This document shows positions 1,672-43,200 of a stretch of DNA of 46,570 bases, piece by piece; within the stretch, counting starts at the first letter, position 1, and each line of letters begins with the position of its first letter. Both the position numbers and the translations under genes were made by a program. Origin of the DNA: Chrysochromulina tobinii (lineage: Eukaryota); assembly GCA_001275005.1 (NCBI GenBank), contig JWZX01003284.1:1-46570 (forward strand), read 5' to 3'. The notes under the pieces were generated by a model. The model did not search any database. It was not told the origin of the DNA and was given only the letters and a program-made list of their open reading frames with translations.

Positions 1672-4600
1672 ATGGTCGTCACATGCAAGACACAGCACTG
1701 GAATAAGGATGAAGGGGCTGCGCCCGTCCCGAATGTGTCCGCGGTCCAGCCGCAATCCATCGCGCTCAACCCCAACTCCGAGTCACCGATGCTCTACGGC
1801 AGTCCCGCCCAAGGCCCCTCAGCGATGCCGATGCTGTCAGTCGGCAACCCCACGGCGGGCAACGGGCTCCAGCTCAAAGGCACGCTCTGGGGCAGCCCGG
1901 GTGGCAAGGGCGGCGACGATGAGCTCCCGCTGCTCGGGGTGCTGGGACACAGCTTCGAGGGCAGCCCCAGCAGCCCCAGCTTCGACGGGCGTCAGAGTCC
2001 GCGGGGTTCGCCCACTCTCGTTCGCAAGGCGACGGACTCGAACAAGGCGCCCACGCGCCTGCACTCGCAGAATGGCCACCCACCGCGTTCGGGAGGCTCG
2101 GTGCACCTCTCGAGCTGTGGCCAGCGCTCGGAGCATTCGAACGTCGTCCTCACGCTCGAGGCGCCCCCGATCACCCACCGCCGACTACAGCCGTCGGCAG
2201 TGCAGCTCAAGCAGCAAGCTCTCGCTGCCGGCCGTTCGCAGCCGCCGGGCTTGAGCAAAACGCACAGCGCGGGCAGCAGCGGGGAGAGCGGCAGCGGTTC
2301 TGGTCAGAGCGCCATGCTACACTTGGCGGGAGGCGGTGTCGGCGGTGGGGAAGATTCCAGACGCAGAGATAGCCTCCGTCTGGACGACGGCAGCGACGCC
2401 CTGGACGCTTACCCTCGTGGCATCGACCTGCCCGCGTCCGTGCCCGCGGGCGGTGAGGAGGAGGTCGCGTGGCTACGAGCGCGCCTATCCGAAGGGCTCG
2501 CGCGCAACGAGCAGCTCGTGGCGCAGCTGCAGCGGTTGCAACAGGAGTCGCATGGGCTGCGCTCGACGCTGCTCGCGCACCAGGGCGCCAACCGGGCGAC
2601 CGTCGATGACTCACGGGTGCGCTCGCTACCCCCTTGGTCCCTTCTCCCGCTCGGATGCGCCCCCCTTGTGCCCCCGCCTTCCCTTATTGGTGTGGTTCGT
2701 TCTCGGCCTCCACTCGCCCTCCCCCGCTCCCCCTCTCCCTCCCCCTCCCCGCTCCCCCGCTCCCCCTCCACCGCTCCCCTCCCCCCCTCCCCGTCCAGGC
2801 CAAGATCCCGGCGGGCTCCATGCAGGGTAAGGGCGGCAAGATTGGCGCCGCCAACGGCCGCCACCGGAAGCGCGTCGACGGCCCGAAGGGTTTGACGATG
2901 GACGACGAGGAGGAGGCGGGCGAGGGCGTCGTGGTGCACGTGCATCCGAAGGCTGAGGAGCTCACGCAGCGCATCCTCAATACGCTGCATAAGAAGGCGC
3001 CCTTCGAGGGGCACGACGCCGCCGACCTGCTGCAGCTCGTGGCCGCGATGGCGCCTGTCGACGTGAAGGCGGGAGTCGATGTGGTGAAGGAGGGCGAGTC
3101 GGGCGACCTCGCGTACTGGGTCGACACGGGCTCGCTCACGGTGGTGGTTGGCGGCAAGGAGGTGGACACCATCGGGACCGATACGGTCTTCGGCGAGGTG
3201 GCGCTCGTGTACGACCTCGCTCGAACGGCGACCATCCGCGCCAAGGTCGACTCACGCATGTGGATCCTCCATCGCACTATGTTCACACACATCCTGCGAA
3301 ACAAGACGATCGCCGATCGGCAGGCCAAGTTCAGCTTCCTGCAGTCCGTCCAGATCTTCGGCACCCTCTCCGGGCGCATGCTTGCGATGGTCGTGGACGT
3401 GGTCGAGGAGGTCGTGCTCGGCGCGAATGAGGTCGTCATCAAGGAGGGGGATGAGGCTGACTCGATGTACATCATCCAGGAGGGGTTCGCGGCGGTCTCA
3501 CAAAAGGGCGCGAGCGCCGCCGACGGCGAGTCGCTGCTGCGCGATCTCAAGGCGGGAGATTACTTTGGCGAGCGCGCCTTGCTCAACGAGGAGCGACGCT
3601 CGGCCACCGTCACATCCACCTCGAGGATCAAGCTCATGCGGCTCGATAAGGAGTCGTTCCGCGTGCTGCTGAGCGTGCTGCATGCCGAGCTGCTCAAGCG
3701 CGTGCACAAGGACGAGCACAAGCAAAAGTCACCAGCCCCCTCGCCCGGCCACCGCCGCGAGCCCGTCGTCGGCGGCAGTGCATACACATCGCCACGCTCT
3801 TCCGTGAAGCCGAGCAAGCTCGAGCTGCTCAAGCAGCTTGGCTCGGGCGGGTACGGGCGCGTCTCGCTCGTGCGCGACACGTCGACGAAGCGCGTGTACG
3901 CGCTCAAGCGCGTGTGCAAGGCGCACCTGCTCTCGCACAACGGCATGATGCGCTGCGAGTGGCTGCTCCGCGAGAAGCGTGTGCTCGAGGAGCTCGAGCA
4001 TCCCTTCATCGTGACGCTGCATGACACGTACGCCGACACGAGCAATCTGTTCCTGCTACTCGGGTGCGCGCTCGGGGGCGACATGTACCGTCTCATCGAG
4101 AAGCTCGGGCAGGTGCACGAGAAGATTGCGCGATTCTACGCGGGCTCGCTCACGCTTGCGCTCGCGCACATCCACACGCATGAGATGATCTATCGCGATC
4201 TCAAGCCCGAGAACGTGCTGCTCGACACGCAAGGATACGTCAAGCTGTGCGACTTTGGGTTCGCCAAGAAGGTGACGGACCGCACGTACACGCGCTGCGG
4301 CACGCCCGACTACACGGCGCCCGAGATGCTGCTCAACCAGGGTGTGAACCAGGCGTGTGATTGGTGGGCGCTCGGCATCATGATCTTCGAGATGCTGATG
4401 GGCTTCCCGCCCTTTTCCGACCCGCGCGGCAACGATATGGCCACGTACCAGAACATTACCAAGGGCGAGTTGAGCAAGTATTATCCGGCGTCTTCCACGG
4501 CCACCGACGAGGCAAGGGCCCTCATCCAGGGACTCTGCACGGTCAAGGTGGCCTACCGCCTCGGCTACCTCAAGGGCGGCGCGTCGGACGTGATGGCACA

Positions 4601-4841
4601 CGCGTGGTTCGCGGGCTTCGATTGGGACGGTCTCGTCAATCTCACTGTCGAGTCGCCATGGCGGCCGGCGCTCACCTCGTCCGTCGACACGATGTGCTTC
4701 GATGAGCCCGAGGGCACCCTATCCCTCGATGGGCCGACCACCATCAAGGCGATCGGCCATGAGCTAGAAGCGAAATGGGCGGCGCTTATGTCGGAGTATG
4801 CCAAGGATCGCGGTTTGAACGAGACGAGCCACCTGACATAG
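1672..4841 (+). CDS. cGMP-dependent protein kinase-like (coiled coil, two cNMP-binding domains, AGC kinase domain); exons 1672-2616 and 2799-4841
   Basis: cNMP cassettes FGEVALVYDLARTAT and FGERALLNEERRSAT. Kinase motifs GSGGYG, ALK, YRDLKPEN, DFG and CGTPDYTAPE. A phase-0 GT..AG C-rich intron at 2617-2798 joins ORF 1672 to ORF 2634 in frame. Exon 1 has the heptad segment LARNEQLVAQLQRLQQESHGL. Confidence 0.9.
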
Positions 4842-5187
4842 CCGTGACGAAGGCAGGCCGGGCGAGGCTAGGCAAGGTGTGGCGTCCTAGAAGAAGGAGG
4901 GCCCTGCCTTTCGGAGGGAGGTCGGGGGGAAGGAAAGGGTGCGAGCGTGAGCATGAATCCTAAGCGCCCACGAGAGGGCGACGTGTTGGTTGCATATTCG
5001 GTAACATGGTTCGGTACGGCCTGCAGCCCACTGGGCGCGGATGCCTGGGCGTGTTACATTGTACTGTGTATTGCATGCAAAAAGTCTCTCGAGGACTCGA
5101 TTTGGGAGAGAAAACCCTTTCTGAGCCATCTCTGGATTCCGCCCCTTGCTGAGCAAGGGAGAAAAAAGTGGGCGTCCCTGAGGTGGA

Positions 5188-7021
5188 TGCACAAGCTCAG
5201 CGAGTCCACACCGCTCATCTCGAAAGGGCGGTACGCGTTTGAGCGACTCGGCATCGATTCGCGAGAGGTGTGGAGTATCATCATCATCGTGCTGCTTTTC
5301 ATCGGCAAGGGCGTCCAGCCGTTTGTCACGGACATCGTGCACGTGACGCAGGCGGCGCTGATCGAGGACAAGACGCTCGACATCACATTTACGGCGCTAG
5401 GCGGCCTCGTGGGCGTGCAGGACTTCACGTCCGGGGTCGCCAAGCTGAGCGTGCCCATCGTGCTGCGCAACTTCGGGCCGAGGATTGTGTATCTCACAGT
5501 GCTCTTCGTGGGCGCGTGCAATACGCTGGCGATCGCGAGCATCGAGGGCGACGTGAGTATCACCGTAATCTTCTCGGGCACTGTGCTGCAGTCGTTCGTG
5601 CACTCGTGGTTGTACCCGGCGACGACGATGACCATCTGCGGCTGGATGGATGGGTCAGTGCTGGGGCGCTCGATCGGTATCGTGGCTGTGGCGACCAAGA
5701 TCACGCCCATCTTCATGGCGCTCATCTACGGCCACCTTCTCGACGTGGGCACCTGGCGGACGTGCTACTACTTCGCCTCCATCCTCTTTGCGAGTATCTT
5801 CGTCGTCTTCTTCGTCTTCATGCGCTCGTCGGCAACCTCCGTCGGCTTCCGCATGCCCGCGCAGCCCACCTCGGGCAAGAAAGGCAACAAGAGGGGCGGC
5901 GAGGATGGGCCCGTGACGGCGCCGAATCGGCCGCCGCCCCTGGGCAATGAGCCGAGCAGCCTCCGGGCTCTATACATCATCAGTTGCATGCGGCGAACGT
6001 GGGCGCTCTTGCTGGGCTTCACCTGCCTCGTCCTTCTGAAGGGGAGCGCCAAGTTTGCGTCGCTGTACGCCAAGCAGAAGCTCGGAGTGACAGCGAGCCA
6101 GGGCACGACGCTCTTCACCACGTACGCTGTCGCAAGCGTCGTCTCGGGCCTGTGCGGCGGCTTCGTGTACGACGCTGTGCCCGAAGGCAAGGTAGGCATC
6201 GGGGTGTTGATGACCTCGCTCAACCTACTCAACCTATCCGGCTTCATCTACGCCCTGGTGCTTGAGCAGATGGACTTCGTGACGATGCCGCTGCTGCAGG
6301 TGTACATGTTCATCGTGGGATTCGCCTCGGTCCTGCCAGTGAGCTTGCCTTTCCAGATCTACGCGATGGGCATGGGCGGCGTCGAGCACTGCGGCATGAT
6401 CGTCGCGGCATTCGAGTGCTTCGCTCTCATTGTCGAGTCACTATTCGACGTGGTCATCGGCTGCTTGCTCGACCAAAAGAACTTTAGCGTGTGGCTCTCC
6501 CTCAACATCGTCTTTGCCACGCTCGGCACCGCCTTCATGGCCCTCTTCTACATTCTTGACTATCGGAAGTCGCCCAAGGCCAACGTGCTCACCTCCGTGC
6601 CCAGGTGAGTGCCACTGATTGCCTCTGATGGCCTCTGATGGCCTCTGATGGCCACTGATGGCCACTGATGGCCTCTGATGGCCACTGATGGCCTCTGATG
6701 TTCGCTGATGGCCTCTGAAGGCCTCTCGCAATCGCCACTGATGACCACTGATGACCATCGACCGCATGCTCGTTGCCTCCGACCAGCCTCAACTCGATCA
6801 CGCGCACCTACTCGAAGCTTCGCCTTTGGGCAGAAACGCTCACGCCCTCGTCCTCGTGCGCCTCTCTCGCCTCCATCGGCTTTGGGAACCCGTCGGAGCC
6901 TTCGTCACCATCCACGCGAGATGGCAGCACACGGCGCAGCCCGATTTCTCCGTCAGCGAGCTGCAAGGGCATGGTGCCAACATTGGCGCCCGGATCGCCC
7001 CCCAAAACTGCAGAGTCTTGA
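5188..7021 (+). CDS. Major facilitator superfamily transporter; exons ~5188-6604 and 6787-7021
   Basis: Two bundles of about 6 hydrophobic helices separated by a hydrophilic loop. MFS-like segments 'LRNFGPRIV' and 'GWMDGSVLGRSIG'. Intron 6605-6786 (GTGAGT...GACCAG) joins in frame to LNSITRTYSKLRLW. The start is uncertain because the ORF is open to 4947. Confidence 0.8.
6612..6757 (+). repeat. Intronic decamer array (CTGATGGCCT/CTGATGGCCA variants)
   Basis: Directly visible tandem repeats inside the MFS intron. Confidence 0.9.
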
Positions 7022-7231: not shown

Positions 7232-8074
7232 CTACGGCCCCGCCTGCCCCTGCTTATACTCGCGCTCGACGATCACCGGCCCGGAGCCCTTGCGCCAGTC
7301 GGCCACTGCAGCGGCAAAGGCCGCCCTCTCCGTCTCGCGCGTGAGCGCGTGTCTCGCCCTAGCCTCGGCGAGCGCAGCGTTCGAGTAGCGACGGCGCTGA
7401 TTCGACTCGCATACGGCCTGTACCGCGGCATGCAGCGCCGGCCGGGCACGCTCGGGCGAACTCACATTCTCAATGCCGATCGGCGGCGTCGGCAACTTCT
7501 CGAGCAGCCGCCGCAGGCTCTCAGGAGCGCTGGCGTCGAGCGCCGCCGCGAGCTCGGCCGCGCCTAATGGGCAGCCCGTGAAGACGAGCGCCGTGTGAGC
7601 GAGCGCCGACTCGCCGCAGTTCGCGACGAACGCATCTACCGCCGCCTCATGGTCCGGCCGAAAGCGACCCCACCGCACGACAAACAAGAAGACGTCGATG
7701 CCGGAGGGCGTGAGGTCCGAAAAGGCGGAGAAGCGCCGCATGACCTCCTCCGCGGGCAGACCCGTGTCGTGAAGCCCGATCGTATCGACGACGCGCATCT
7801 CGACCACCTCCTCAGCAATAAGCAGATAGTCACGGTGGGCCACGCCGGCAGTTTCGGACGATAAGCCGCCGCTGACGGCAAAAGCGTCCAATGCGCCGCA
7901 CAGCGTATTGCCCGTGCTCGACTTACCGTCGCCCGTGACGCCGACGAGCACGATCGCGCGCAGATTCGCGTCCTCCTCTGGCTCGGAGGACTGCTGTGCC
8001 TCCGCGAGTGCCAGAAGAGCTTGCATCGATTGCTCCGCCGCGCCGATGTAAAGATCCAGCCCCTCTTTTCTCAT
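7232..8074 (-). CDS. AIG1/GIMAP (IAN)-family P-loop GTPase
   Basis: IVLVGVTGDGKSSTGNTLCG (G1), VVDTIGLHDT (G3), 'GIDVFLFVVRWGRF', 'HTALVFTG' (G4 region) and a C-terminal helical tail. Start placed at ATG 8074; ATG 8026 is an alternative. Confidence 0.85.
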   Translation of the reverse strand: MRKEGLDLYIGAAEQSMQALLALAEAQQSSEPEEDANLRAIVLVGVTGDGKSSTGNTLCGALDAFAVSGGLSSETAGVAHRDYLLIAEEVVEMRVVDTIGLHDTGLPAEEVMRRFSAFSDLTPSGIDVFLFVVRWGRFRPDHEAAVDAFVANCGESALAHTALVFTGCPLGAAELAAALDASAPESLRRLLEKLPTPPIGIENVSSPERARPALHAAVQAVCESNQRRRYSNAALAEARARHALTRETERAAFAAAVADWRKGSGPVIVEREYKQGQAGP

Positions 8075-8358
8075 TGTGAATGGGGGCACCCCCCGCCGAG
8101 CGTCCGGCGCCCGCGCCCGGGCCGACTCCCCTGTGGGGAAAACGGGGAGGAGTGGTAAAGATCCGTTCATATGAATACACACAACACGTGAGCAGCACAG
8201 CCTTTCACAACACTCCAACACGTACAACGCAACGTTCCCAGGACAAAGAAACATCAACTGCACACGCATGGAAAGTCCTACCATAGTATGGAAAACAAAT
8301 TTCCAAAAACTTCTATGTTGCCTCTTGCGACCTGTGCGCCGACGCCCTCGAGTGAGGC

Positions 8359-11300
8359 ATGCCATACATTGACCTGCCCGGCAGTGCCATGAAGCGTGGC
8401 TTTAGATTGAGCCGCGCCGCAGCGAACCGGCCGTACCGCGAGTGGACGGACGAGGGGCCGCAGCAACCGTCCATGGACGCGGGCTACTCTCCGGTGGACG
8501 ACAAGCGTGCCAAGCGTGAGGCGGCAATCGTCGTGCAGCGGTGGTACCGCCGGCAGCTGCTCAAGTTCGCCACCTTCGGGCCGGTCATATTCACGCGGCG
8601 CGACGGCAAGCTCGCCGATTTTGGCTCGCTCTCGTTCCTCGGCGGCACGCGGATCGCCTACTACATTCGCATCTCGGACACTACGTCATCGGCTATGCTC
8701 TCGCACTTCTTGGAGAAGTATTGGCGGCTGCCGCGACCGGACGTGCTCATCTCGGTCACGGGCTCTGCCGCATCGCTCCAGCTGACCTCGCAGCTGCAGC
8801 GGGTCTTCGACCGCGGCCTCGCGTCGGCGGCCGCGATGACGAACGCGTGGATCTTCACCGGAGGCACGGACAGCGGCGTGATGAAGCTCGTAGGCGAGGC
8901 GATGCATAAGTACGGGCTGGTGGACGTGCCGGTCGTGGGCGTCGCGCCGTGGGGCGCGATTGCGGGGCGCAAGGAGCTGAGCGACAAGAAGGGTCAAACC
9001 ATCGAGGTGATGGCATGGCAATACGAGTGCGCCTCTGCGTGCGCCTCTGAGTGCGCCTCCGAGTGCGTCCAATTGCCTGCCTCATCAGGTGATGTACGGC
9101 AAGACCGGGATGGACACTGTCGGCCGCCTCAACCCCTACCACACGCATCAGATCCTCGTGGACGCGCCGGACGGCGGGAGCGAGGCCACCGCCTGGGGCT
9201 CGGAGATCGGGCTGAGATCGCGCCTCGAGCGCACGTACGCGATCACAGTGATAGATGGCCATTGATGACCTCTGATTGCCTCCCTCATCAGGCTCGGAGA
9301 TCGGGCTGAGATCGCGCCTCGAGCGCACGTACGCGGTCGCAGTGATAGATGGCCATTGATGACCTCTGATTGCCTCCCTCATCAGGTATGCGATCTCGAA
9401 GGGCGTGCCCGTAGTGCAGCTCGTCATCCAGGGCGGACTGGGCACGCTCGACACGTGCATCGCTTCCGCTGAGCTCGGATCGCCGTTACTCATCCTCGCC
9501 GACTCGGGCGGCGCGGCCACGGCCATCGCGCAGTTCTGCACGGGGGGAGAATCGGGGGGAGGTGTGTGAGTGCATGCGGAGTGCCTCGCGGACTACATCT
9601 CTGAGTGCATTCTGATGGCATCTCTGAGTGCATGCTGAGTGCCTCGCGGACTGCATCTCTGAGTGCATGCTGATGGCATCTCTGAGTGCATGCTGATTAC
9701 ATCCCTCATCGCGGATTGCATCTCTGAGTGCATTCTGATGGCTGATGGCGCATCCGCTCTGAGTGCATGCTGATTACATATCTGAGTGCATGCTGATTGC
9801 ATCTCTGAGTGCATGCTGATAGTGCATCCGCTCTGGCGGTGGGGGATTCTGATTGCCACGGATTGCCACGGATTGCCACGGATTGCAGCACGCTCTGACG
9901 GGTTGGGGATTCACGTGGAATCCTCGACGCGCTCGAGAGTGCCGTGTGATTGCATCTGTGAGTGCCGTGTGATTGCATCTTTGATTGCATGCTGACTGCC
10001 TCTGTGAGTGCATGCTGCTGAGTGCAGGAGGGGACATCGACGCGGTTGAGAGCGCCGACTTCATCGCGCAGGAGCCCAAGCTGCGCCAGCTCAAGTCGCT
10101 CAACGACGAGCGCGGGGGCACGTTGCTCAGCTTCTTCAAGCTGCAGGATGAGGACTCTCAGCAGAACATGTCGAGCGCCATCTTGGGCGCGCTCTTCCGG
10201 AACCTGATGTTCCACCAGCCGGGCCAGGCGGTGGGCAGCTCCATCACGCCGGCCATGCAGCGCCTGGCCAAGCGCCGTTCTGAAGTGTACGACGGCGCGG
10301 CGGTGGTGAAGGCGGCGACAGATGAGATCTTCAAGCGTTACCTCGATCAGATGCAGGTGTGTGATTGCCCTCGATTGGTTGCTGTGATGGCCTCACTCAT
10401 CACAGAGGCACGGGATTCCCGCTGATGGCCTCACTCATACAGAGGCACGCGGGATTGCCGCTGATGGCCTCACTCATCACAGAGGCACGCGGGACTGCCG
10501 CTGATGGCAACGATGTGCGACTGATCGGCATGATGTACGGCCATGGGCATGTACATACGATTATACATACGATTATACATACGACTGATCGGCATGATGG
10601 CTTCCCTCGGCAGCGCGCGCTGCTGCTCACTGTCAAGTGGAATCAGCCAAGCTTCGCGAGGCGCATTCTCGTCGACCTGCCACCCTCGCACGATCACACG
10701 CGCCCGATGCGTAAGATGCTTCAGCATGCGATAGGACAGCGCCGGCTGGAGATCGTGCGCCTGCTGCTCGAGCGCCCAGGTGCGATCTCCCTTGATGACC
10801 ACTGATTGCATGCCAATGGCACCCGATCGTGCGCCTGCTGCTGCTCGGACGTTCAGGCACCGCAATCTCGTCTGTCAGCCTGTGCCAGCTGTACTTGCTT
10901 GAGGACCCGTACAATTACTTACGCCGAGATCTCGCGCTCCAGGCGAGATTACAGCGAGCTCTGAGCGAGATCGCGCGAGATGGGAACACACAGGCCCAAT
11001 GGGGTTCCGCCTACCTTCTCTTCCGCAACACGGTTGGACCCACGCTTCGAGCGGTCACGCCGCTGCTCGGCGGCATCATCGAGAATCAGCGTCTTTGCAC
11101 GCACGCCGATGTCTTCTTCTGGTGAGTGCCCTCTGATGGCGCCTCTAATGGCCTGTGATGGCCTGTGATGATGGCCTCTGATTGCATTTCTGGTGAGTGC
11201 CCTCTGATGGCGCCTCTGACGGCGCCTTTGATGGCCTCTGATGATGGCCTCTGATTGCATCTGATGGCCTCCCTCATCAGGTGCGTCTTCATGGGCGACG

Positions 11301-15643: not shown

Positions 15644-18600
15644 CTACGCCATGCCCATCGCCGTGCCCAGCACGTGCTGCGCGAGCGCCCGGACGCGCCC
15701 GTCGGCCTCCTGCTGCGAGGCGAGCCGGTAAAGACCGCTGAGGAGCGCCTCGCCGCCCATGACGGCGCTGGCAGCGGTCTCCGGAGCGCCGTCGTGGGCG
15801 CCGCCGCTGACGCCACCACCGCTAGCCGCAGTACTGCTGGTGAGCGCGCTGGTGACGGCAAGCACTACGCCGAGCAGCTTGACCGCTGCCAGCCGCGCGT
15901 CCTCATGGGCGCTTCGACCGTCCGCCTTCGCGCGCTCGGCTAGGGCTGCGAGCGAGATCGCGTCGAGATGCGCTTGGCTGTGGAAAGCGAGCTCGAAGAG
16001 CGCCTGTGTGACCGGCGCGCCCGAGCGTCGCAGCAGCAACGGCAGCGCGCGTGCCGCGAGCACGGCCGCCGCGGGCGCCCCACCTTGCGCGTGCCGCATA
16101 CGCGTCGCGAGTGTGATGATGGCCAGCGCGTGCGAGAGTGTGGTGCTGTCCCCGAGCAGCGCATCCACGCATCGCTCCATCGAGCGCTCAATCGACCAGC
16201 CAGCAGCGAAGGTCGCGCCGTCCGTGCCCGCACACGTGGCCTCTGCCCAGTCGCCACCCTCGCCCATCCCCCGAGTGGACCCCTCGCCCATCCCCTGAGT
16301 GGAACCCTCGCGCGGGGCCCCTTGGAGCCCCACACACCACGTACGAGCCAGCAGGTCGACGCAGCCCATTCCGAGGCGCTCGAGGGCCTCCAGCGCGACA
16401 CGCGTCGTATCGGGCTCCTGCGCGGCACGCGGGCCGTTGGACAGCGGCGCGGCGCGCAGTACGGAGATGAGAGCCCCTGAGGAGCGACTGATGGCCGTAC
16501 TCACAGGGGCTGGATGCAGCACGACGGCGCAGCACAGGTAGTAGAGCGCGAGTCCACTGGTCGCATGAGCAGCGAGCTCTCGAGGCCTTCGACCCAGGGC
16601 AGCCACGCGCGCCAGCATAGTCTCGAGCGCAACTGCAGGCGGCAGGCGCGCCAGGAGAGCGCTCGCCATTTTGCGCACCGGCTGCTGCTCGGCGCCATCG
16701 GATACACGGGCAAGCAAAGCGCGTGCGCACGAGGGTAGCTCGGCGGCCAAGGAGGGCGCCACCGCGTCAGCCGATGCCAAGGCGACCGGTACAACGGCGT
16801 CCGAAACGGCAGCCGTTTCGGACGCCGCCTCGTCGTTTTCTGCGTGCCCACCGCCGCCACCGCCGCCGCCTACGCCGCCGTCGCCTCCGCCTTCGCCGTC
16901 GCCTCCGCCGTCGCCGCCCCCGCGCTCGAAAGCCCCCGCGGCAGAGCATCCGTCGCCTCCAAAGCGTCGCCGGGCAAGGGACGCCCGGCACGACGCCCAC
17001 CCAGCCATCCTCAGGCAGCATCTGTAGGAGTAACAGCGGACGCAGACGGTCGTACAGCATCGGATCCGCGTTCGCGCCCGCAACCGCCGTGGCTGCGGCG
17101 GCGGCGTGTGCCTCGGGTTGAGTGGAGCCTTTGCAGTTGGACCCTTTGCAGTTGGTCCCTTTGCAGACCACCTCGAGTCGTACCACTGCCGCTCGCACGA
17201 CGAGCGCCTGCCACGCGTCGTGTCCCCGCGTTATGGCGAGCATACGCTTGAGTACCTGCAGCGAGCAGACGTCCTGTGCGGCCGCAAAGAACTTCGGTGC
17301 ATGCAAGCCGGAAGGCGCGAGGCCACGTGCTCTCATCGAGGTTCGTCACCCAGCCCTCGAGAGCCCCGCAGTAGCAGCACGCCGCCCTCGCCGGCGTCCG
17401 CCGCTACACCTGCTGTACCTGCCGCGTCCGCTGCACCCCCACCGCTGCTGCTGCTGCTCGCAGCGGTCGCGCTAGCGGTGCGGTGGCCCGTGCCGGTGCG
17501 CTGGTCCGTGCCGGTTCTGTGATCCGTGCCAACGAAAGCGGCCTGCGCTGGCGGCCCGAAGTGCGCCGGGCTGGTGAGCAGCGGGAACGGTGCAACGGGT
17601 GTCTCCGCACACACCTCCCGAGGAGCTGCGGCGCCGTCTTTGAGAGCATCGATGACGGCACCGATCGTCTCGGCGGCACCCCGAGGCCCTGCGAGCACCG
17701 CGGCCAAAGCCGCCTCGAGCGCAGCAGCGGCAGCGGCGGCAGCGGCGGCGGCAGCAGCAGCAGCAGCGGCAGCGGCAGCGGCAGCAGAAGGAAGAGGAGC
17801 GCCGTCTTGAGCAGCAGCGGCACTCTTGCCAGTGCTCTTGGCAGCCTCGGCTGGGGTTAGGCGGCTTGTGGAAGGAGCCGCCTTGGCCGCGGTGGGGCGG
17901 GCCGCTTCGAGAAGCTGAGGGAGCGTCACCGTCGGGTCCAGTCGTGCGAGCAAGCCCAGCCACTCCCCAACGGCTGGCCGTTGCCCAGGCTCGCTCGTCG
18001 CCCCTCCCTCTGGAGGCAAGGGGTGCTGCAGCGCGTGGCGCAGCACTCGCCTGGAGACCTGCGCCTCCGCCCGTCGCCCAAGCAAGCGGCTCAGGTCAGC
18101 GCCGCCCCCGGCCATGCGCATGAGCACCGCAAGCGCCACGGCGCGTTGCGTCGCCACCGGGGAGCCGAGCTTTTCTGCGAGATCCGCGAGCAGCTCTTCG
18201 GGATATGCATGCGCAAGGGCCGCGAGGGCCGTCACCACCGGCGCACTCGGTGCGTCCGTGGCTTGCAGTAGATTGAGCACAGGCTGTAGCAGCACGGCGG
18301 CGGTGGCGGCGGGGGCGGTGGCGCTGCCGCTGGTGGCGGCGCTGGAAGGTGCCTCAGCGGCGGCGGCGGGCAACGTGAGTATCGTGGGCAGGAGCATCTG
18401 GAGCATCGCAAGCGGAAGCGCCGCGTCCGCGAGGCTCGTGCAGCGTGCGCACAGGGCGGTGTACAGGCGCGGATGTAGCCGCTCGAACAAGGTGGCACGG
18501 CTGGACGTGTCGAGGGCTGCAAGCTGAAGGGCCAGAGCACAGAGAGCTTCGAAGCCCAGACGGGCGCGACATGCTTCGTCGTCCTCTCCCGGCAGCGGCA

Positions 18601-19741
18601 CTGCCGCTGCCGCTGCCGCGCCGCCCGCGAGCGGCGACGCCGCCGCTGCTGCCATCGCCGCCGACGTCGCCGCGGCCATCGCTCGAGGGTCGGAGGCGGA
18701 GGAAGCGGAAGCGGAGGAAGCGGCCGGTGGCGTGGGCGGCGGCGGCGGCGGCGGCGAAGGCGAAGGCAGCGTGGCTCCCGTAGAGCGTGGCGCCGTCGTG
18801 AGCACTTGCATGCAGGCCTGCCCCAGTCGGCGCGTGGGTGGTGGCGGCGGCAGCGTGGCTCCAAGCAGCAGCATCCAGCGCTCCGCTTGCACGTGGACGT
18901 GCTCAGCACGGCGCTCGACCTCGCTCACGAGCCGCGGCGCGCAGCTCAGCCAGAGCGAGCCGAAGCGAGCCAGACCGAGCTCGGCTGCAGCAGCGAGCTC
19001 AGCAACGGCCAGCTCACGCAGGAGCTCAGCGATCGCCACTCCAAAGAGCCGCTGCGATCGTCGCCAAGCACCCAACACATGCAACAAGCGATGCGCCTCC
19101 GCCGTGCAGTCCAGCAGCGCGCGCACCCATGGGTTGTTGTCGCCATGGCTCGCGCCGCGAGCGCCCACGCTGCTCATTGTCGCGCGGCGGCAGAGCTCGG
19201 TGAGGCATGCGACGGCGGCATCCGCGCAAGCGACCATCACATTGGATGGCGCGACGGCGCCCTCGTCGCACGCGCTCAACGTGGCGCGGAGGAGCTCGAC
19301 AACAGTACACGGCGACCACACGCATCGCGCCGCACGTTGCAGCGGTAGCGCCTCGAGCAGCGCGAGCGCCGAAGCCAGCTTGAGTCTGCTGCAGTCGTGT
19401 GCCCTCAGGATGCCCGTCGAGAGCTCGGTGGTGGCGGCGCCGCCGAATGTGCCGTGGCCGATCATCCAGCGCACCAGCATGGCAATCTGCTGGTGCCGAT
19501 GGCCGCGCCGGCGGCCCGCGCCGAACTCGAGGAAGAGCGAGAGCACGTGGCGAGTGGAGGTCGAGGCCGCGGTCGCGTCCTGCTGCTGGTCGAGGAGGAA
19601 GCGCTCAACCTCGTGCAAGGCGCGCGACTCTACCATGTCTGGCACGTCGTCCGAGCCGAGTGCGAGCAGCAACGACTCGCGTGGCGCGTGCAGGAGCGTA
19701 GCGACCGCATGTCCAAGCGGAAGGCTCCCGTCGCCGGCCAT
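15644..19741 (-). CDS. Large Ala-rich helical-repeat (ARM/HEAT-like) protein, interrupted by about 3 apparent frameshifts (near 17365, 17295, 16965)
   Basis: ORFs 17333-19741, 17011-17349, 16767-17336 and 15644-17083 stitch into ...VLLLR/ALEGWVTNLDESTWPRAFRLAC/KFFAAAQDVCSLQVLKRML...LYDRLRPLLLLQMLP.../FGGDG...VRKMASALLARLPP. Each switch is a single-base shift with no intron signals. The family assignment is inference from the amphipathic Leu/Ala helices. Confidence 0.55.
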
Positions 19742-19945
19742 TTCTAGACACGTGTGTGATTAGTGTGAATGGCAACCCCTGGTGCTACGGCACTGTTACT
19801 GCCCGCTCAGGTTACATGTACACACACCCGGTGTGTGAAAGACGAAGACGAACTTTGCGTCTTCGCGCGAGCTTCGCGAACGAAGGCTCTTCGCATCGGC
19901 GAAGCGTCCGCCTTCCGCGAGGCCTTTACGCCGTCCGGCGGCCAA

Positions 19946-20651
19946 AGTGCGTCATGACGGCCACTGCGCCAGAGCCCCGGATGACGAGAACGCTGCGCGC
20001 GCCCGAAGCCCGCCTGGGCGCCACGGCCGCGCGCGCGCGGGGGCTCGGACGGAGCGCGGCCTCCTGTGCATCACGTCTCACCCTTTGCCCGGCGTTGACT
20101 CTCGCCTTGCAGTGCCAATCTCTCCGTACTGCCCGGAGTATGCGCCCTTCTTCGGCTTCATGGGCGCGGCGCTCGCGCTGGTCTTTGGGAACATGGGCGC
20201 CGCGTACGGCACGTGGAAGTCTGCCATAGGCCTCGCGACCATTGCCAAGCTGCCTCGAAATAAGGTGCAGACGGAGATGGTGATGAAGTCGATCATGCCC
20301 GTGATTCTGTCGGGTGTGTGCGGCATCTTCGGCCTCATCATCGCCGTGATCATCTCCTCCGGCATGCGCACGCCCAGCGGCCCAGGCACCACGACCTATT
20401 CGCTCTACACTGGCTACGCGCACCTCGGCGCGGGACTAACCGTCGGCCTGAGCAACCTCGCGTCGGGTCTCGCGATCGGCATGTGCGGCACGTGCGGCGT
20501 GCAGGACTCGTGCCGACAACCCAAGCTGTACATTGGCATGGTGCTCATCTGGAGTTTCGGCTCGGCGCTCGGCCTGTACGGCCTCATCGTCGCCCTCATC
20601 ATCGCGACGAAGGACGGCTCCGAGCTTTGCGAGCTGACGGGCCCGAGCTGA
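19946..20651 (+). CDS. V-ATPase V0 proteolipid subunit c-like (16 kDa family), lacking the canonical TM4 glutamate; exons 19946 (A) and 20113-20651
   Basis: MPISPYCPEYAPFFGFMGAALALVFGNMGAAYGTWKS...KSIMPVILSGVCGIFGLIIAVII...SLYTGYAHLGAGLTVGLSNLASGLAIG...QPKLYIGMVLIWSFGSALGLYGLIVALII. Removing the intron at 19947-20112 (GTGCGT...TTGAC...TTGCAG) creates A|TG. Confidence 0.9.
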
Positions 20652-20751
20652 TCTCAGTGGGAGGGCAAGCAAGCATGTCATGAAGCATTTGCGTAATTTC
20701 CTAACTTTCGAAACAACGAAACTTGCATTTTCTACTTCTCTTCCAGTGGCC

Positions 20752-21795
20752 ATGGAGTCTCGGGACGCTCTCGGCAATCGCTTGAAGCGCGACCCCTTTA
20801 CGGGCATCATGTGGGCCCCGGGCATGCCATCATCGGGGCTCGCGTATGCACATGAGGCGAGGCTGTGGAGAAAGGAACGTGAAAGGGCTATGGCATTCGC
20901 CAGCGAGTTGGCGGCTGCAAGGAAGCAACGTGAAAGAGCAGCAGCGAAGCCCGTCTTCGACATCGATGCGCCGTTTGGCATGAACACCGATCCTCGCACG
21001 GGGCAATTCGTTCATCCAGAGCATCGTCGGCCGGGGCCTAAAAGCATAAACTACTTCCAATATCATTTGAGCCAACCACGCAGCGCTGAGGAACGCAGCC
21101 GGCTCTTTCGCATGCGTGGCAGTAACAATTGGTATGGGGTCGTGCGCCCAGTCGTGCCTCGGAGCTGTAGCGGCAGCATGCTCGGGTACGTGCCTTCCGC
21201 AGACCAGAACCTCCACCGCGGCTTCCACTCCGGGCGCACCGCTGGGCGAGCGTTTGATGACGACACTGGAGGCCACGTGCGTTCGTACGAGGAGCCGCCG
21301 CCGCGCCAGGGGCGCGACACCGGATTGCGGGAGCGCGAGCTGCGCCGCGCTGCATCGGTGCCGACGTATGTGCCGCCGCCGGCCACGGCATGGGGGTCGG
21401 CAGAGGCGTGTCCGGCGACGCCACGGGGCCCGATCATGTCGATCGACAGGACTGGAATGGTGTATCCAGTCTACACTGGCAGGAAAGAAGAGTTGGCGCA
21501 GAAGGTCGGCAGTGCTCACTGGTCGACGGTGGCTAGTCCAGCTACGCCACGAGCATCAACAGTGTCTCGCCCAGCCACGCCACGGGGTTCGACGATGGCT
21601 AGCCCAGCCACGCCACGGGGTTCGACGATGGCTAGCCCAGCCACGCCACGGGGTTCGACGATGGCTAGCCCAGCCACGCCACGGGGTTCGACGATGGCTA
21701 GCCCAGCCACGCCACGGGGTTCGACGGTGGGGTGGGCACCGCCCCCGCCCAGGCTGCCGCCGCCCCCGCAAACATGCGAAACATATTTCGTGTGA
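20752..21795 (+). CDS. Hypothetical protein with C-terminal 11-aa (MASPATPRGST) repeats
   Basis: Long ORF with an ATG at 20752 after an AT-richer spacer, containing in-frame 33-bp repeats. No known domain recognised. Confidence 0.6.
   Translation: MESRDALGNRLKRDPFTGIMWAPGMPSSGLAYAHEARLWRKERERAMAFASELAAARKQRERAAAKPVFDIDAPFGMNTDPRTGQFVHPEHRRPGPKSINYFQYHLSQPRSAEERSRLFRMRGSNNWYGVVRPVVPRSCSGSMLGYVPSADQNLHRGFHSGRTAGRAFDDDTGGHVRSYEEPPPRQGRDTGLRERELRRAASVPTYVPPPATAWGSAEACPATPRGPIMSIDRTGMVYPVYTGRKEELAQKVGSAHWSTVASPATPRASTVSRPATPRGSTMASPATPRGSTMASPATPRGSTMASPATPRGSTMASPATPRGSTVGWAPPPPRLPPPPQTCETYFV
21523..21730 (+). repeat. Coding 33-bp tandem repeat, about 6 copies
   Basis: Unit gctagcccagccacgccacggggttcgacgatg; the first copies are degenerate. 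Confidence 0.9.
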
Positions 21796-28858: not shown

Positions 28859-30289
28859 TCACGCCTTCGACGGCACAATGCACACACAGACCGGCGTGGG
28901 CACCTTCGTGGTCAGCTCCGTTGGCGGCCCGCCCTCGCAAAGGACAACGATCTTGTCGTCGTTCTGGTTGGCGACGAGCGCGAGCATGCCTGCCTGCGGC
29001 TCGGCGCTCGCGGCCGCGCCGCCGCCGTTGTCGCTGCCGCGCCGCTGCCTCTTCGTAGGGCTTGCGCTTGGAAGCCCCGGTAGCATCGCGAAATCGCGCG
29101 GAGTTTCGCCGAGGGTGCGCGTGACGCGGATGGGACGATCGTGGGCATCGACGAAGAGGCCCGATGGTGTGAGCGGGATGGCCGAGAGGGCGCCGGGTTC
29201 ACCCTCAATGCGCGACGACACGACCAGCTGAGATCCGTCCGGCGTCACGGCGATGGCGGCGAGGCTCGTCACTTTGTCAGAGCACACGCGCCTGCCGTGG
29301 CCTGGCTTGAGGCCACTCGCGTCCGTGCCCTCAAGCGCCCAGTTGGGTGCGACGAAGCGCGTGAACTCCTTCGAGGCATCGACAGTGCAGCCTGAAGGCA
29401 GCCGCGCGCCCGCACCCGGCAGCTCGCCGTGCAGAAAGTGGCTGCCGACGCCATCGAGTGCACACAGGAGCCCAACGGGCGGCTCGTCGCTGATCGCGCC
29501 GCTCTTGCGATCGATCTTGAATGCGGCCACCAGACTCGTAAGCTCGTAGCACACGTAGCACACCGCTTCCGTTGGATGCAGCGCAAGATGGCGCGGCCCA
29601 CCGCCCGCGAGCGCTTGATGGCTCCCCGATGGCACCGGCTCGCCGAGCGGAGCGGACAGGCTTGCTGCGTCGAAGGGGATCGACCACACGACGTCCGAGC
29701 CGAGGTCGGGCACGAGGACCGTCGACGATTTCGTGCCCGCCGAGACGTGCACCATGTGTGCGTGCGCTCTCTCCTGTCGCGCCGCGTTTGGCAGCGGGTA
29801 GGTGATCGGGTGCGTGGCCGGTGGCAAGTCCACGTATTGCACGTTGGTGCCGTCGAGCTTGCCGTCAGGCAGCCGTGCGATCGCGACCACCGAGCCTGTG
29901 AGGTAGTTGGCCGCGAGCACGTGCGACCCGCCCGGTGCTACAGTCACGTGGCAGCACGCGGCGGCGTCCGCCAGGTCCCGTCGAATGGGCTCGCCGTTGC
30001 AAGCCAGCTCGCCCGTGCTCTCATTCAGGGTGAGCGCCGCGACGAAGCCGGCATCGCTGTGCGACTCCTCGACCACGTAGACGTCCAGCCGGTCTGCCAC
30101 GGAGTCACGGAACACGGTGACGTAGGACGGGTTCTTGAAGACGTCGCCAAGCTGCGCCTTGCCAAAGTCCTCGGTGAAGGCGAGAGACGAGCGGTCAAAT
30201 TTTAGGACATAGAGGCCCTTGCCTTTGCCGTTCACGTGGCCGAGCTTCTCGCCGTACGTGCCACAGATGACGAGGTGCTCCATGTTCAT
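28859..30289 (-). CDS. 6-phosphogluconolactonase-like 7-bladed beta-propeller lactonase (Pgl/YbhE family)
   Basis: ICGTYG, NPSYV, CCHVTV, ANYLTGSV, QERAHAHMV, VPDLGSD, GGPRHLALHP, YELTS, TPRDFA, VANQNDDKIVV and VPTPVCV. No intron. Confidence 0.85.
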   Translation of the reverse strand: MNMEHLVICGTYGEKLGHVNGKGKGLYVLKFDRSSLAFTEDFGKAQLGDVFKNPSYVTVFRDSVADRLDVYVVEESHSDAGFVAALTLNESTGELACNGEPIRRDLADAAACCHVTVAPGGSHVLAANYLTGSVVAIARLPDGKLDGTNVQYVDLPPATHPITYPLPNAARQERAHAHMVHVSAGTKSSTVLVPDLGSDVVWSIPFDAASLSAPLGEPVPSGSHQALAGGGPRHLALHPTEAVCYVCYELTSLVAAFKIDRKSGAISDEPPVGLLCALDGVGSHFLHGELPGAGARLPSGCTVDASKEFTRFVAPNWALEGTDASGLKPGHGRRVCSDKVTSLAAIAVTPDGSQLVVSSRIEGEPGALSAIPLTPSGLFVDAHDRPIRVTRTLGETPRDFAMLPGLPSASPTKRQRRGSDNGGGAAASAEPQAGMLALVANQNDDKIVVLCEGGPPTELTTKVPTPVCVCIVPSKA

Positions 30290-30525
30290 CGCACGAGTTA
30301 CAAAGAGAAAAGCGGAAGTGTGAATGGTGACAAATGGCACGAACGTGTACTTTCTTTTCTGAAGAATCCCTTTGGACAATACCTGTGGTCCCTTGTGGAC
30401 ACACATTCACATTCACACACACTCATTCACACTTGTGTGTGCGACTTGGTGCGACCCGGCGTGGAGTGAGTCTCGCTTCGCGCACCGGGACTGCTGGCCC
30501 ACCTCGATCCGGGATCAGCATCGCA

Positions 30526-32578: not shown

Positions 32579-34239
32579 TCACGGCGGGCAGAGCGGCGTG
32601 TCCGGCGCCAGCGGCACCTTGTCAAAGTCACCACCAGCGAGGAACCGGGTCAGCATATCGAGTGCGTGCTTAGGCCGGTCGCGCGGTACCATATGGCCCG
32701 CCCCCTTGACGGTGAGGAATGTGAGGGGCACACCCGCGGTGGCATACTCTTCAAAATAGCCCGCCACCTGCCCATCGGAGCCGCGCCACTTGGTCCACTC
32801 GCGTGTCTTGTTGAGCGCCAGCCCCTGGTTGATCCACGCCGAGTTGCCCATGTGTGAGAGGATGTAATCTGCGTCGCCATTGTAGATAAGGATCTGTAGC
32901 TCGCCCTCGGCCACCCACTGCTTGTACCGCGGCAGCTCCGACAGGTAGTTGAAGTCGTACTGCACGTTGCCGCAGTCGGACCACTTGCCACCTGGGATTG
33001 TGCCCGGGCGCACCCCGATGGCCTGCTGCACGGCGGGTAGGTTGAGGTACGCGGCAGAGTACGCGTCCGCGCACGTGGGGTAGATGGGCGAGATGGTCGT
33101 CTGCGTGCGCCGACCACGCCCGTCGAGGGCGCTGCCAGAGTGGTCTACTGTCGCCTCCTCCTCAACCGCCGTCGGCGCCCGCTGTGCGTTGTGCCGTTGC
33201 TGCTTTGCGCGCTGCTGCTCCTCGAGGAGCATGAAGGCCTGCGTCTTCAGCCGTTGCTGGCCCTCGAGGCACACGTCCACGTAGATGTCGTAAATGTCGA
33301 TCGAGCCGTCCCGAGCGAGCGCCGTCGCGCGATCGACGGCCTCGCCGCACGCCGCCGGGCACTCGACGTCCGGTCGCTGCCAGAAGCAACGGGCATAGGA
33401 GCCATTACAGGCGACGTCTGCTGAGTCGAGGAGGCTCTGGCTCGTCAGGGCATGGTAGCGCGTGTTCGGCACGTTAGCGTTGAAATCCAGGAACCAATCC
33501 GTGTACCCGTTGCCCACGGCAAAACCTTTGATGTTGATGCGCTCAGGCGCGCTCGGCGCTAGCGCGGCGTTGCCCGCCTGGATGGCGGCGACGGTCTCTG
33601 GCACGTAGTGACCTCCATAACTCTCGCCCATCACGTCTGCGGCGGGTGAGAGTCGGAATGCATGCGGCAGGTGAACGTCGGAATGCATGCGTCAGGTGAG
33701 CGCACGAGGCTGCGGGCAGCTTCCTATCATCAAGGCTGCGTTCGAGGGAGTCTGCCAGTCGTACAGAACGGGCGGCCGCGCAGATCCGGGTGCAAATTGA
33801 AGAAGGCGAGTAGAGCCTTGTAAGTCTCATAGGCGGTGACCGTGTCATTGGCCGGCAAATTTGGATACGAGAAGCCGACACCGGCTGGCTGCTCAAGGAA
33901 GAGAACGTTGGCCACTTTGTTGAACGAGTAGGGATTGAACGTCACGTTGAGTGTCTTCTGGACGACGAACGGTCCGAGCTCGGTGAACGTGCCTCCCAGT
34001 GAGCTGCAGCCGGGCCCGCCGTTGAGCCACAAGAGGAGTGGCTTGGACTTGGGATCAGCCACTGCCTCGTGGTACCAGTAAAACAAGTGGGTGTCGCGGC
34101 TGGTGCCAGTCGACAAGTAGCCGCTGCTGTGGTTGAAGCACGGCGAGGTGGCGAGACCTGGCAGGGATGTGACCTTAGCAGCTGATGCTGCGCCGAAGAG
34201 GACGACACGCACGAGCGTGTGGAGTGATGATAAGAGCAT
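32579..34239 (-). CDS. Serine carboxypeptidase (peptidase S10); exons 34239-33765 and 33636-32579
   Basis: Signal peptide, HLFYWY, PLLLWLNGGPGCSS, FLEQPAGVGFSY, spliced F-Y-VMGESYGGHYVP (catalytic Ser), YNGDADYI (Asp) and TVKGAGHMVP (His). Intron at 33637-33764. Confidence 0.92.
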
Positions 34240-34801
34240 CGCAGTGTGCGCCGTGTTGGGGCGGAGCGCGCTTTAAAAGCGCGGTCGACATCCTGTTTTG
34301 CTTTTTCCTGATCGGTATTCCGTTCTCCATGCTGTCAACAGAGTTTTGAGTTCGGTTGCTCGTGGCGAAGCTGCAGGAGGGAACAGAGTGAGTGAGAGGT
34401 GAGTCGGAGAGTGAGCGACTATGTCTCAATAACTCACTCACTCTCACTCGTGAACAGACGCTCCTTTACTGTGAACTTGGTCGCGTAGGTTAATTCATCA
34501 AACTTCACAAAGGCAGCCTGGTGAGCGCGACATCCCAAGATCAACGATCCAGCCCCCGGTTCAAAAACACCGGGGGGAGCGGGGACACAAGGTAGACAAT
34601 CGGTGTACCGGTAAGACGCCGCGCGCGCGAGCGTTTCGCTGAGGGCGAAGGGCGGATGGGAACTTCAAAGCTGTCACGAGGCTGATTTGCACTCGCCAAC
34701 TGACAACCTCTTCGGACTACAATTTATGAGTTGCCTCGGACTCCCAAAAGCGTTAAGTTCCGAATCGCACGTTCGGCGTCCGCAAAACGCGTCGCTGCAC
34801 A

Positions 34802-36370
34802 ATGGTCGGCCACAAGTTCGCAGACAAAGTCTCCCTTCGCGAGTATCTTCTTGCGCACGGCGTGGATTCCATCGCATGGGGCACGCGCGGTGCCAAGCAC
34901 GTTGAGGACCTGCTCGAGGAGCTGCAGCAAGGGGAAGCATCGCTGCAGCTCGTCGATGGCAAGATCTATCGCAACCTGGGCGTCGTGAAGCTGATCGTAC
35001 GCAGCCCGGAGGTCCCAGGGCAGCATCTCGTTTGCTACGAGCAGCAGATGGCCGACGGGCGCAAGCGCCAACGCAACGTGCTTCTGGCGGAGAAGAAGAA
35101 GCGCAACGAGACGGCAGATCAGGCTGCGATGCGAGCCATCAGGGAGGAGCTGGGCAGCGTCAAGGGGATGAAGCTCGACAGTGTGCTGCTGCGCGTGGGC
35201 ACCTACAAGAATTGGGAGGAGGCCGATGTGTCTCCATCATATCCGACGCTCTCCACCCGGTACGAGCTGCATCAGTATGAGGTGCGCGTGCGCGGCCTGC
35301 CCAAGCATCCGTTCATGACGGTTGAGGATGCTGGCGAGGGCAAGAAGAAGTTCAACTTTTGGAAGTGGGTCGTCGACTCCGATGACGATCTTCGGTACAA
35401 GGGCTTTGCCACTGGGCAGCGGCTCTCAGACGTCCACGAGGAACACCCAATAAACCCCAGCAAGTGGCAGCCGTCGGGAGTCGCTCAAAACATATTCGCA
35501 GACAAGGTGGAGGCGCGTAAGTACCTTCTCTCGCACGGTGTGGATACAGCCGCGTGGGGCGTATGTGATGCCAAGCGCATCGAAGACCTGCTCGAGGAGC
35601 TGCAGCAAGGGGAAGCATCACTGCAGCTCGTCGATGGCAAGATCTATCGCAACCTGGGCGTCGTGAAGCTGATCGTACGCAGCCCGGAGGTCCCAGGGCA
35701 GCATCTCGTTTGCTACGAGCAGCAGATGGCCGACGGGCGCAAGCGCCAACGCAACGTGCTTCTGGCGGAGAAGAAGAAGCGCAACGAGACGGCAGATCAG
35801 GCTGCGATGCGAGCCATCAGGGAGGAGCTGGGCAGCGTCAAGGGGATGAAGCTCGACAGTGTGCTGCTGCGCGTGGGCACCTACAAGAATTGGGAGGAGG
35901 CCGATGTGTCTCCATCATATCCGACGCTCTCCACCCGGTACGAGCTGCATCAGTATGAGGTGCGCGTGCGCGGCCTGCCCAAGCATCCGTTCATGACGGT
36001 TGAGGATGCGGGCGAGGGCAAGAAGAAGTTCAACTTTTGGAAGTGGGTCGTCGACTCCGATGTCGATCTTCGGTACAAGGGCCCTTCGACGGGTGTCCTC
36101 GGCTTCAATGAGTTGTTGGCTCAGCGTCCGCCGTCGACCATAGGAGACAGCCGCAAGGGCTTCGACGTCGCGTTCATCAACTCGCCAATAGGCTCCGCCA
36201 CTTACTGGCCCGCGGCGACTGCATTCTTGTCGCCGCGCAGCGTTCATTGCTGGCAGCCCAGCGTAAACGAGGGGGGGGGGATCCTCACGCCGACGTGGCA
36301 GCCGCCGCAGGCGCAGTCACTCGCCAACCCCGTTTCCAGGCGCCACCCACATCGCACTACGCCATTTTGA
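34802..36370 (+). CDS. Protein with two tandem NUDIX-like domains; the C-terminus may extend to 36764 via a frameshift
   Basis: Repeated domain containing WGxxxAKxxEDLLEELQQGEASL, EKKKRNETADQAAMRAIREELG (Nudix-box-like) and SPSYPTLSTRYELH. Confidence 0.7.
   Translation: MVGHKFADKVSLREYLLAHGVDSIAWGTRGAKHVEDLLEELQQGEASLQLVDGKIYRNLGVVKLIVRSPEVPGQHLVCYEQQMADGRKRQRNVLLAEKKKRNETADQAAMRAIREELGSVKGMKLDSVLLRVGTYKNWEEADVSPSYPTLSTRYELHQYEVRVRGLPKHPFMTVEDAGEGKKKFNFWKWVVDSDDDLRYKGFATGQRLSDVHEEHPINPSKWQPSGVAQNIFADKVEARKYLLSHGVDTAAWGVCDAKRIEDLLEELQQGEASLQLVDGKIYRNLGVVKLIVRSPEVPGQHLVCYEQQMADGRKRQRNVLLAEKKKRNETADQAAMRAIREELGSVKGMKLDSVLLRVGTYKNWEEADVSPSYPTLSTRYELHQYEVRVRGLPKHPFMTVEDAGEGKKKFNFWKWVVDSDVDLRYKGPSTGVLGFNELLAQRPPSTIGDSRKGFDVAFINSPIGSATYWPAATAFLSPRSVHCWQPSVNEGGGILTPTWQPPQAQSLANPVSRRHPHRTTPF
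34905..36081 (+). repeat. Near-identical coding duplication of about 500 bp, period 678 bp
   Basis: ~34905-35403 versus ~35583-36081 show only a few substitutions. Shadow ORFs 35032 and 35710 translate identically. Confidence 0.95.
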
Positions 36371-43001: not shown

Positions 43002-43200
43002 TTCGTCGTGACTGTGCTTTGGGAGGGAAGGGTGTGAAAGTGTGAACGTTAACACGACAATGCGTCTACAGTAGCTACATGTACTGTAATTGAAGTGTGA
43101 TGTCCAACACGCTTCACAGAAGTTTGCTCTCGTTGCTACGGCGGCACGACGGAGGGCGCCTTCGCTCCGCTCGCATATTCCGCCAGGGACTCGGTACATC

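Follow-up and report, generated by a model that had tools for sequence, protein, structure and literature searches.

Can a V-ATPase ring subunit that lacks the proton-binding glutamate still serve in a rotor, and what would it do there? In passages from two papers on the yeast enzyme (PMC7541076, PMC8804929), each characterised eukaryotic ring proteolipid carries one essential glutamate, and a single loss halts the yeast pump. An earlier note on a 46,570-nucleotide contig of the haptophyte Chrysochromulina tobinii (the whole of which is called the window here) had described a c-type proteolipid with no such residue. We followed up that observation by alignment, structure prediction, phylogeny and a comparison with published ring geometry.

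A spliced proteolipid gene with serine at the glutamate site

Contigs from RNA and DNA sequencing runs gave the following gene structure.

19885..19946, plus strand: exon 1, comprising the 5' leader and the A of a split start codon (RNA contigs; 5' end approximate)
19947..20112, plus strand: 166-nt GT..AG intron within the start codon, between A and TG (absent from RNA contigs of 4/4 runs, present in DNA contigs)
20113..20651, plus strand: exon 2, coding for a four-helix c-type proteolipid, stop codon at 20649-20651 (PF00137 in two stretches, AlphaFold, Foldseek)
20652..20714, plus strand: 3' untranslated region (RNA contigs stop at 20701-20714; end approximate)

The earlier note had started the gene at 19946. 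This position is indeed the A of the ATG, but the codon is interrupted by the intron. Contigs with the 19946/20113 junction were found in 4/4 RNA runs and begin at 19885-19905; intron-containing pieces were also present in two of these four runs, and exon 2 was covered by two further RNA runs. All six are 2019 mixed-culture metatranscriptomes that may belong to one campaign, and their contigs show transcription only, so that genes cannot be ranked by expression level from them. Two other ATG codons were rejected as starts, the one at 19769 because the RNA contigs begin downstream of it and the one at 19955 because it is removed by splicing. The product has 179 residues including the Met, which is counted in our numbering, and is identical, letter for letter, to record P0127. 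Across 19782-21598 there were 0 differences and 0 gaps in two DNA runs, which are possibly the source of this DNA and hence are not independent confirmation.

The gene lies head-to-head with an upstream minus-strand gene (19741-19946, start codons about 205 bases apart), and its split ATG falls at its only intron. The two long upstream frames at 15647-19741 probably belong to a single gene that assembly errors have broken in two: at 16966, 17295 and 17364 one base each is missing in two DNA runs (and in one RNA run at one site), and without the three extra bases the frame extends over 1364 residues rather than 802, with no Pfam match. Between the two genes, a 30-base element at 19781-19810 is probably a dispersed repeat; DNA contigs break there, the bin mean depth is 2100-2700 compared with about 45, and RNA contigs run into other sequence before the element, which has a single copy in the window. 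Directly behind the proteolipid gene, a 385-residue open frame (20638-21792, plus strand) contains a 12-residue tandem repeat near its end, is covered by RNA contigs over 20756-21194 and has only a sub-threshold mucin-like match. Pfam identified no V-ATPase neighbour among the 51 other frames of the window. The domains assigned by Pfam were:

2610-4838: cNMP-binding kinase
4872-6605: MFS
7235-8401: AIG1 GTPase
8356-9306: SLOG domain of TRPM
28862-30406: lactonase
32582-34272: S10 peptidase
34757-36367: NUDIX
37023-40716: EML propeller
41574-43523: sulfatase
43090-44298: 2OG-Fe(II) oxygenase

The helix-2 and helix-4 motifs, IMPVILSGVCGIFG and IWSFGSALGLYG, and the TCG codon at 20562-20564 lie where the earlier note had placed them, and Ser151 aligns exactly onto the glutamate of solved c subunits. 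The residues that set the protein apart are listed below.

20562..20564, plus strand: Ser151 (TCG) at the proton-carrying Glu site, yeast c E137 (alignment)
20550..20555, plus strand: Trp147-Ser148, one turn cytosolic of the lost Glu, where canonical c has Leu-Ile (alignment)
20328..20330, plus strand: Phe73 in place of the helix-2 Tyr, yeast c Y66 (alignment)
20454..20456, plus strand: Asn115 in helix 3, common to mammalian c'' (N in 180/180 family rows)
20253..20267, plus strand: five extra residues in the cytosolic loop between helices 1 and 2, with the next conserved Pro changed to Thr (Pro in 105/107 canonical rows)
20505..20507, plus strand: Asp132 at the cytosolic end of helix 3 (98% of family rows, 1/107 canonical rows)

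We looked for a compensating Asp or Glu within the membrane and found none. The protein has six acidic residues (E9, E55, D132, D168, E171 and E174), and by the helix limits of the AlphaFold model all six would lie at helix ends or in tails; we therefore infer that no acid, Asp132 included, sits mid-membrane. The loss extends beyond the glutamate recognised earlier, because the helix-2 tyrosine of the proton pocket is gone as well. Column 73 is Phe in 97% of 180 family rows and Tyr in 107/107 canonical rows, although the Pavlovales orthologues retain the Tyr; in a passage from PMC7541076, Y66 of yeast c stabilises the ionised glutamate. The pocket has been rebuilt as a unit, with M66L, A67S, L70C, Y73F, L147W, I148S, A150G and E151S in window numbering. 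About 30 diagnostic columns separate the 180 family rows from the 107 canonical rows, clustered at the helix 2/helix 4 pocket and in the cytosolic loops (insertion 48-52, P54T, R131Q, A132D); the family rows, which are dereplicated, were picked by their helix-4 motif, and columns 147-152 are thus fixed by construction. The codon at the Ser151 site is TCG, TCT or TCC in relatives and GAG in canonical copies. The ring-packing glycines G29, G33, G112, G119, G123 and G157 are retained at 100% in a 60-row sample.

Outside the pocket the protein resembles subunit c (Vma3, ATP6V0C, plant VHA-c; PF00137), with which it shares the double hairpin, about 50% identity and the ring-packing Gly motifs. A phmmer search of solved structures ranked plant subunit c first (7e-46), followed by c' (4e-39) and c'' (2e-18 or weaker). 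The AlphaFold model (pLDDT 75, from a 26-row alignment) predicts four long helices, and c/c' chains were its best Foldseek matches (E 1e-9); the ESM Atlas returned generic PF00137 clusters only. The four-helix double hairpin with PF00137 present twice is the architecture of c and c', both hairpins are nearer to c than to c'', and the protein is nested among c sequences in trees built without c'' rows. It differs from subunit c in having Ser151 for the helix-4 Glu, Phe73 for the helix-2 Tyr, a Trp four residues before the site and the five-residue loop insertion.

The resemblance to c'' (Vma16, ATP6V0B) is concentrated around the silent helix 4. An excerpt of PMC8804929 places Ser192 of yeast c'' at the position of Ser151, and the S192E primer given there, translated by eye, reads E-I-F-G before it, so that both proteins have a non-aliphatic residue four before the site; they also share the helix-3 Asn. 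In contrast, c'' carries its glutamate on helix 2, and the window protein has no acid in helix 2 after E55 and a c-like N-terminal hairpin. We read the c''-type likeness of helix 4 as apparent convergence on the way c'' is silenced, not as recombination. We assign the protein to a genuine variant class of V-ATPase proteolipid not described before, which is neither c, for want of the Glu, nor c'', for want of the helix-2 Glu.

Glutamate-less families in haptophytes and beyond

Among the best 120 of 2120 database matches, 46 have W-S-F-[GA]-[SN] at the site (44 Ser, 2 Asn), 70 have Glu, one has Asp and three have no helix 4. Within the same 120, Ser occurs in 43/43 matches that are at least 70% identical and include helix 4, and two more at this identity lack the helix. 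As a check independent of helix-4 selection, we searched 624 collected proteins for the helix-1 signature GT[WY]K[ST]; 199 have it, and just one of these, the distant P0427, has the Glu motif. Of 80 loci compared at the nucleotide level, 75 (L006-L080) encode the Glu. The earlier note had proposed conservation and dN/dS as a check, and Nei-Gojobori estimates for all pairs among the window gene and L001-L004 gave 0.047-0.126 in 10/10 cases, indicating purifying selection. L005 was dropped because its 5' part is unrelated sequence; its five pairs gave 0.40-1.14. Positions 1-638 of this locus look chimeric, joining unrelated sequence to the second half of a near-identical gene copy. The earlier note would have abandoned its reading for an unexpressed and neutrally evolving gene, but the gene is spliced in RNA and under purifying selection.

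Named family members come from Prymnesium parvum, P. polylepis, Phaeocystis cordata, Diacronema lutheri and Pavlovales sp. CCMP2436, which we take to represent both haptophyte classes. When a link to calcification or the haptonema was considered, no coccolithophore and no member of the Isochrysidales appeared among the named members listed for the 22 clusters looked up (10 + 10 + 2, with at most 15 members listed per cluster, the majority without a name). Part of a survey of Emiliania huxleyi (PMC2784329) reports one c'' (from a transcript) and two c/c' clusters, and makes no mention there of the glutamate. In a 68-row tree, the 18 Glu-less rows fall on one side of a branch with support of 100/97; the window protein groups with a P. 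parvum copy (99/94), Diacronema is basal within the family, matching the species tree, and the stem branch is long (0.96). Glu-less and Glu-bearing copies (P0175 and P0329) occur in the same genome in Pavlovales sp. CCMP2436, and P. parvum has two different Glu-less paralogues, P0013 and P0404. On sequence evidence the family is old and extends across the phylum, and similar cases occur in other lineages, which goes beyond the view taken in the earlier note.

Signal-peptide-like N-terminal extensions were seen in P0045, P0082, P0289 and P0329, which are deep members or Glu-bearing neighbours of the family; those of P0082 and P0329 contain Cys-containing luminal segments.

A profile search across 1.84 billion representatives added 144 rows, of which 103 have Glu at the site, 20 are not aligned there, 14 have Ser and seven have other residues, some of the non-Glu rows being truncated or mis-spliced models. 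Credible Glu-less cases are a second haptophyte family (P0404, the second P. parvum paralogue, and P0359, with relatives), a diatom/Triparma family that includes Pseudo-nitzschia and Fragilariopsis (P0468, P0513 and P0581, with relatives), and isolated sequences from loricate choanoflagellates (Didymoeca, Bicosta) and from a nematode (Acrobeloides), namely P0459, P0493 and P0469. When an alignment of these cases was used as a query, 117 of the best 120 of 3405 matches had Gln four residues before the site, with Ser (61) or Gly (56) at the site itself; names among these 120 include Fistulifera, Seminavis, Attheya, Odontella and Triparma. Residues 147 and 151 are Trp and Ser in the window family, Gln and Ser in one of the other two families, and Gln with Ser or Gly in the other, compared with Leu at position 147 in 119/119 canonical rows, which were picked by a motif allowing L or V there. 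In all three families the residue at the Glu site is small, as is that at helix-3 position 125, where 94% of canonical rows have Val. The second haptophyte and diatom/Triparma families differ from the window family in mostly keeping the helix-2 Tyr, in having insertions in the helix 3-4 loop and in occupying separate branches in the best trees.

In trees built without the trait columns, each of the three families adjoins Glu-bearing relatives, and three changes were counted on 200/200 bootstrap trees. The 44 rows used here excluded P0045, P0082 and P0115, canonical rows with long branches, and the sequences from choanoflagellates and the nematode. A single Glu-less clade was not rejected by AU tests on quick trees (p 0.199 and 0.107). 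There were probably three separate losses of the glutamate. The choanoflagellate and nematode rows joined the window family with an SH-aLRT of 89, a placement that we distrust because these rows are flagged long branches. The opposite variant was also encountered: P0361, P0366, P0466 and P0393 are tandem double-c proteins with Glu in both helix 2 and helix 4, the former five residues before the Tyr in the c''-type place, giving two acid sites per four-helix unit.

A proposed place in the V0 ring

The excerpts of PMC8804929 and PMC7541076 describe the yeast ring in enough detail to consider where a silent subunit could sit. Its glutamates are spaced at eight intervals of 36 degrees, one of 18 degrees between c(1) and c'', and one of 54 degrees between c'' and c'; a turn comprises steps of 126, 126 and 108 degrees, and in state 3 it is c''E108 that lies on the Arg (PMC8804929). 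Loss of c''E108 or c'E145 leaves a gap of three or four helices without glutamate and pumping stops (PMC7541076, PMC8804929), and passive rotation is slowest across the two-helix gap of the native ring (PMC7541076). Growth on stringent media is lost with c''S192E or a symmetric ring (PMC8804929). We enumerated the ten slots and found that a Glu-less subunit at c(1) alone keeps the largest gap at 54 degrees; it widens to 72 degrees at eight of the ten slots and to 90 at the remaining one.

The likeliest role of the variant class is that of a silent subunit in the ring, and for the window protein itself we put the probability of its being a silent subunit of a V0 ring at about 0.75. We tentatively suggest, at somewhat less than even odds for the whole scheme, a specific arrangement in which a single copy would enter an otherwise normal rotor ring at the slot predicted from yeast geometry, c(1) beside c''. 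This supposes a ten-membered haptophyte ring with an intact c''. Removal of the c(1) Glu, with the c'' Glu kept, would leave seven spacings of 36 degrees and two of 54, none of them wider than the gap that the enzyme crosses in every turn as it is, and the rotor could still stop at intervals of 126, 108 and 126 degrees. Any other slot would create the 72- or 90-degree gap that blocks pumping in yeast. The ring would then carry nine protons per three ATP, an H+/ATP ratio of 3.0 instead of 3.33, and under assumed ATP energies the stall gradient would rise by about 11% (about 0.3 pH unit). A second slow step without glutamate would be an extra barrier against back-leak, and the result could be a tight isoform that works in low gear in one particular compartment. 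In all three Glu-less families helix 4 has come to resemble the silenced helix of c'', which suggests that this face of the helix still sweeps past subunit a.

Several considerations weigh against the c(1) placement. Because a ring offers a single c(1) slot, the two Glu-less paralogues of P. parvum would have to belong to separate isoform rings. Judged from the published mutants, the yeast ring copes poorly when its Glu pattern is altered, and the pump may run more slowly with two 54-degree steps than with one. In addition, an excerpt of PMC9280200 identifies a cytosolic loop of plant c as the site of subunit d, and the loop insertion and lost Pro at this candidate site fit a changed partner equally well. 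The earlier note had offered an altered H+/ATP ratio, pump inhibition and a non-pumping V0 role as possibilities; the published geometry would favour the first only if the subunit adjoins c''.

Two known systems resemble the proposed spacer in part. Fungal c' (Vma11), as described in part of PMC8804929, is a lineage-specific duplicate of c in one fixed slot and so provides a precedent for slot specificity, but it retains its essential Glu, E145, and lies on the opposite side of c''. The hybrid rotor of Acetobacterium woodii, with nine F-type c subunits and one V-type c1, likewise uses a special subunit to cut the number of ion sites, according to a passage in PMC9171764; it differs in that c1 retains one Na+ site and the enzyme is a bacterial F-type.

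Other readings and what the family means

A somewhat unlikely alternative is that the protein acts as a brake, entering ordinary c slots so that a 72-degree gap stalls or uncouples the pump, with its expression setting the active share of V-ATPase in a near-neutral compartment. In excerpts of PMC7541076 and PMC8804929, the yeast enzyme stops pumping once a single ring Glu is lost (c''E108G in the latter), the enumeration gives a gap of 72 degrees at eight of ten slots and of 90 at one, and several independent families would fit a simple, easily evolved inhibitor. A poison subunit, however, needs Glu loss alone, yet here some 30 family-specific columns extend over all four helices, and so many fixed changes combined with low dN/dS suggest specific contacts. 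Moreover, V-ATPases already have an off-switch in V1-V0 disassembly, which would be cheaper.

We consider it unlikely that the protein builds a non-pumping V0, whether as a ring of its own or as V1-free V0 for vesicle fusion, secretion or scaffolding (for example in scale-forming or extrusive vesicles). The remodelled cytosolic loops, the long stem branch and the signal-peptide-like extensions of some deep members (P0045, P0082) would suit this role, and the yeast ring alone is reportedly a large pore. The c''-type silent-helix convergence is nevertheless easier to understand if the helix still passes subunit a. Use of another ion site, at D132 or neutral polar residues (S67, C70, N115, S148, S151), is improbable. 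D132 and N115 are near-invariant and family-specific, but the model puts D132 at the cytosolic surface, in the final turn of inner helix 3, and the other two Glu-less families lack both residues (column 132 being misaligned there). To our knowledge, all H+ and Na+ rotor sites use a carboxylate.

We regard it as highly improbable that the protein corresponds to c'' or is a chimera of c and c''. An 11-residue stretch of helix 3 is identical to mammalian c'', the surrounding 22-mer matches c'' best, and helix 4 reads FGS as c'' does. Against this, helix 2 has no Glu, the N-terminal hairpin scores 58-82 bits on c/c' and 11-13 on c'', the overall sequence affinity is not to c'', and the protein nests among haptophyte c copies. 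The C-terminal hairpin scores 52-59 bits on c'', no higher than a canonical control at 53-67 bits, which largely refutes a chimera. The chance of a sequencing error or decaying pseudogene is negligible in spite of the probable assembly errors 2.6-3 kb upstream of the gene, because DNA and RNA contigs show no difference at the codon, the frame is intact and transcribed, conservation is phylum-wide and dN/dS is about 0.1, in keeping with the earlier note's judgement that a single sequencing error is unlikely.

We found no description of a natural Glu-less eukaryotic c subunit in the full-text literature searched, a body that leaves most subscription papers outside. A testis paralogue of Drosophila Vha16 reportedly lacks the Glu, for which literature searches gave no confirmation; if true, it would anticipate the substitution but not the existence of an old, conserved family. 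Databases label the Glu-less proteins as ordinary proteolipids, and studies of algal acidification or biomineralisation may therefore count silent subunits as pumps. The family also offers a natural test of ring asymmetry, with the prediction that the c(1) Glu alone is dispensable.

The preferred reading, a silent ring subunit, can be extended to a more speculative proposal, which we hold with slightly less assurance than the c(1) scheme itself. A proton-blind spacer would constitute a fourth class of ring subunit that evolved repeatedly (in haptophytes twice, in diatoms, and perhaps in choanoflagellates and a nematode) at the permissive slot beside c''. It would lower the count from ten to nine protons per turn and set H+/ATP organelle by organelle through the exchange of one rotor subunit. 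A Glu-less copy maintained by selection throughout an algal phylum, with apparently more than one origin, would mean either that the coupling ratio of the V-ATPase is tunable by ring composition or that some V0 rings have a conserved non-pumping job.
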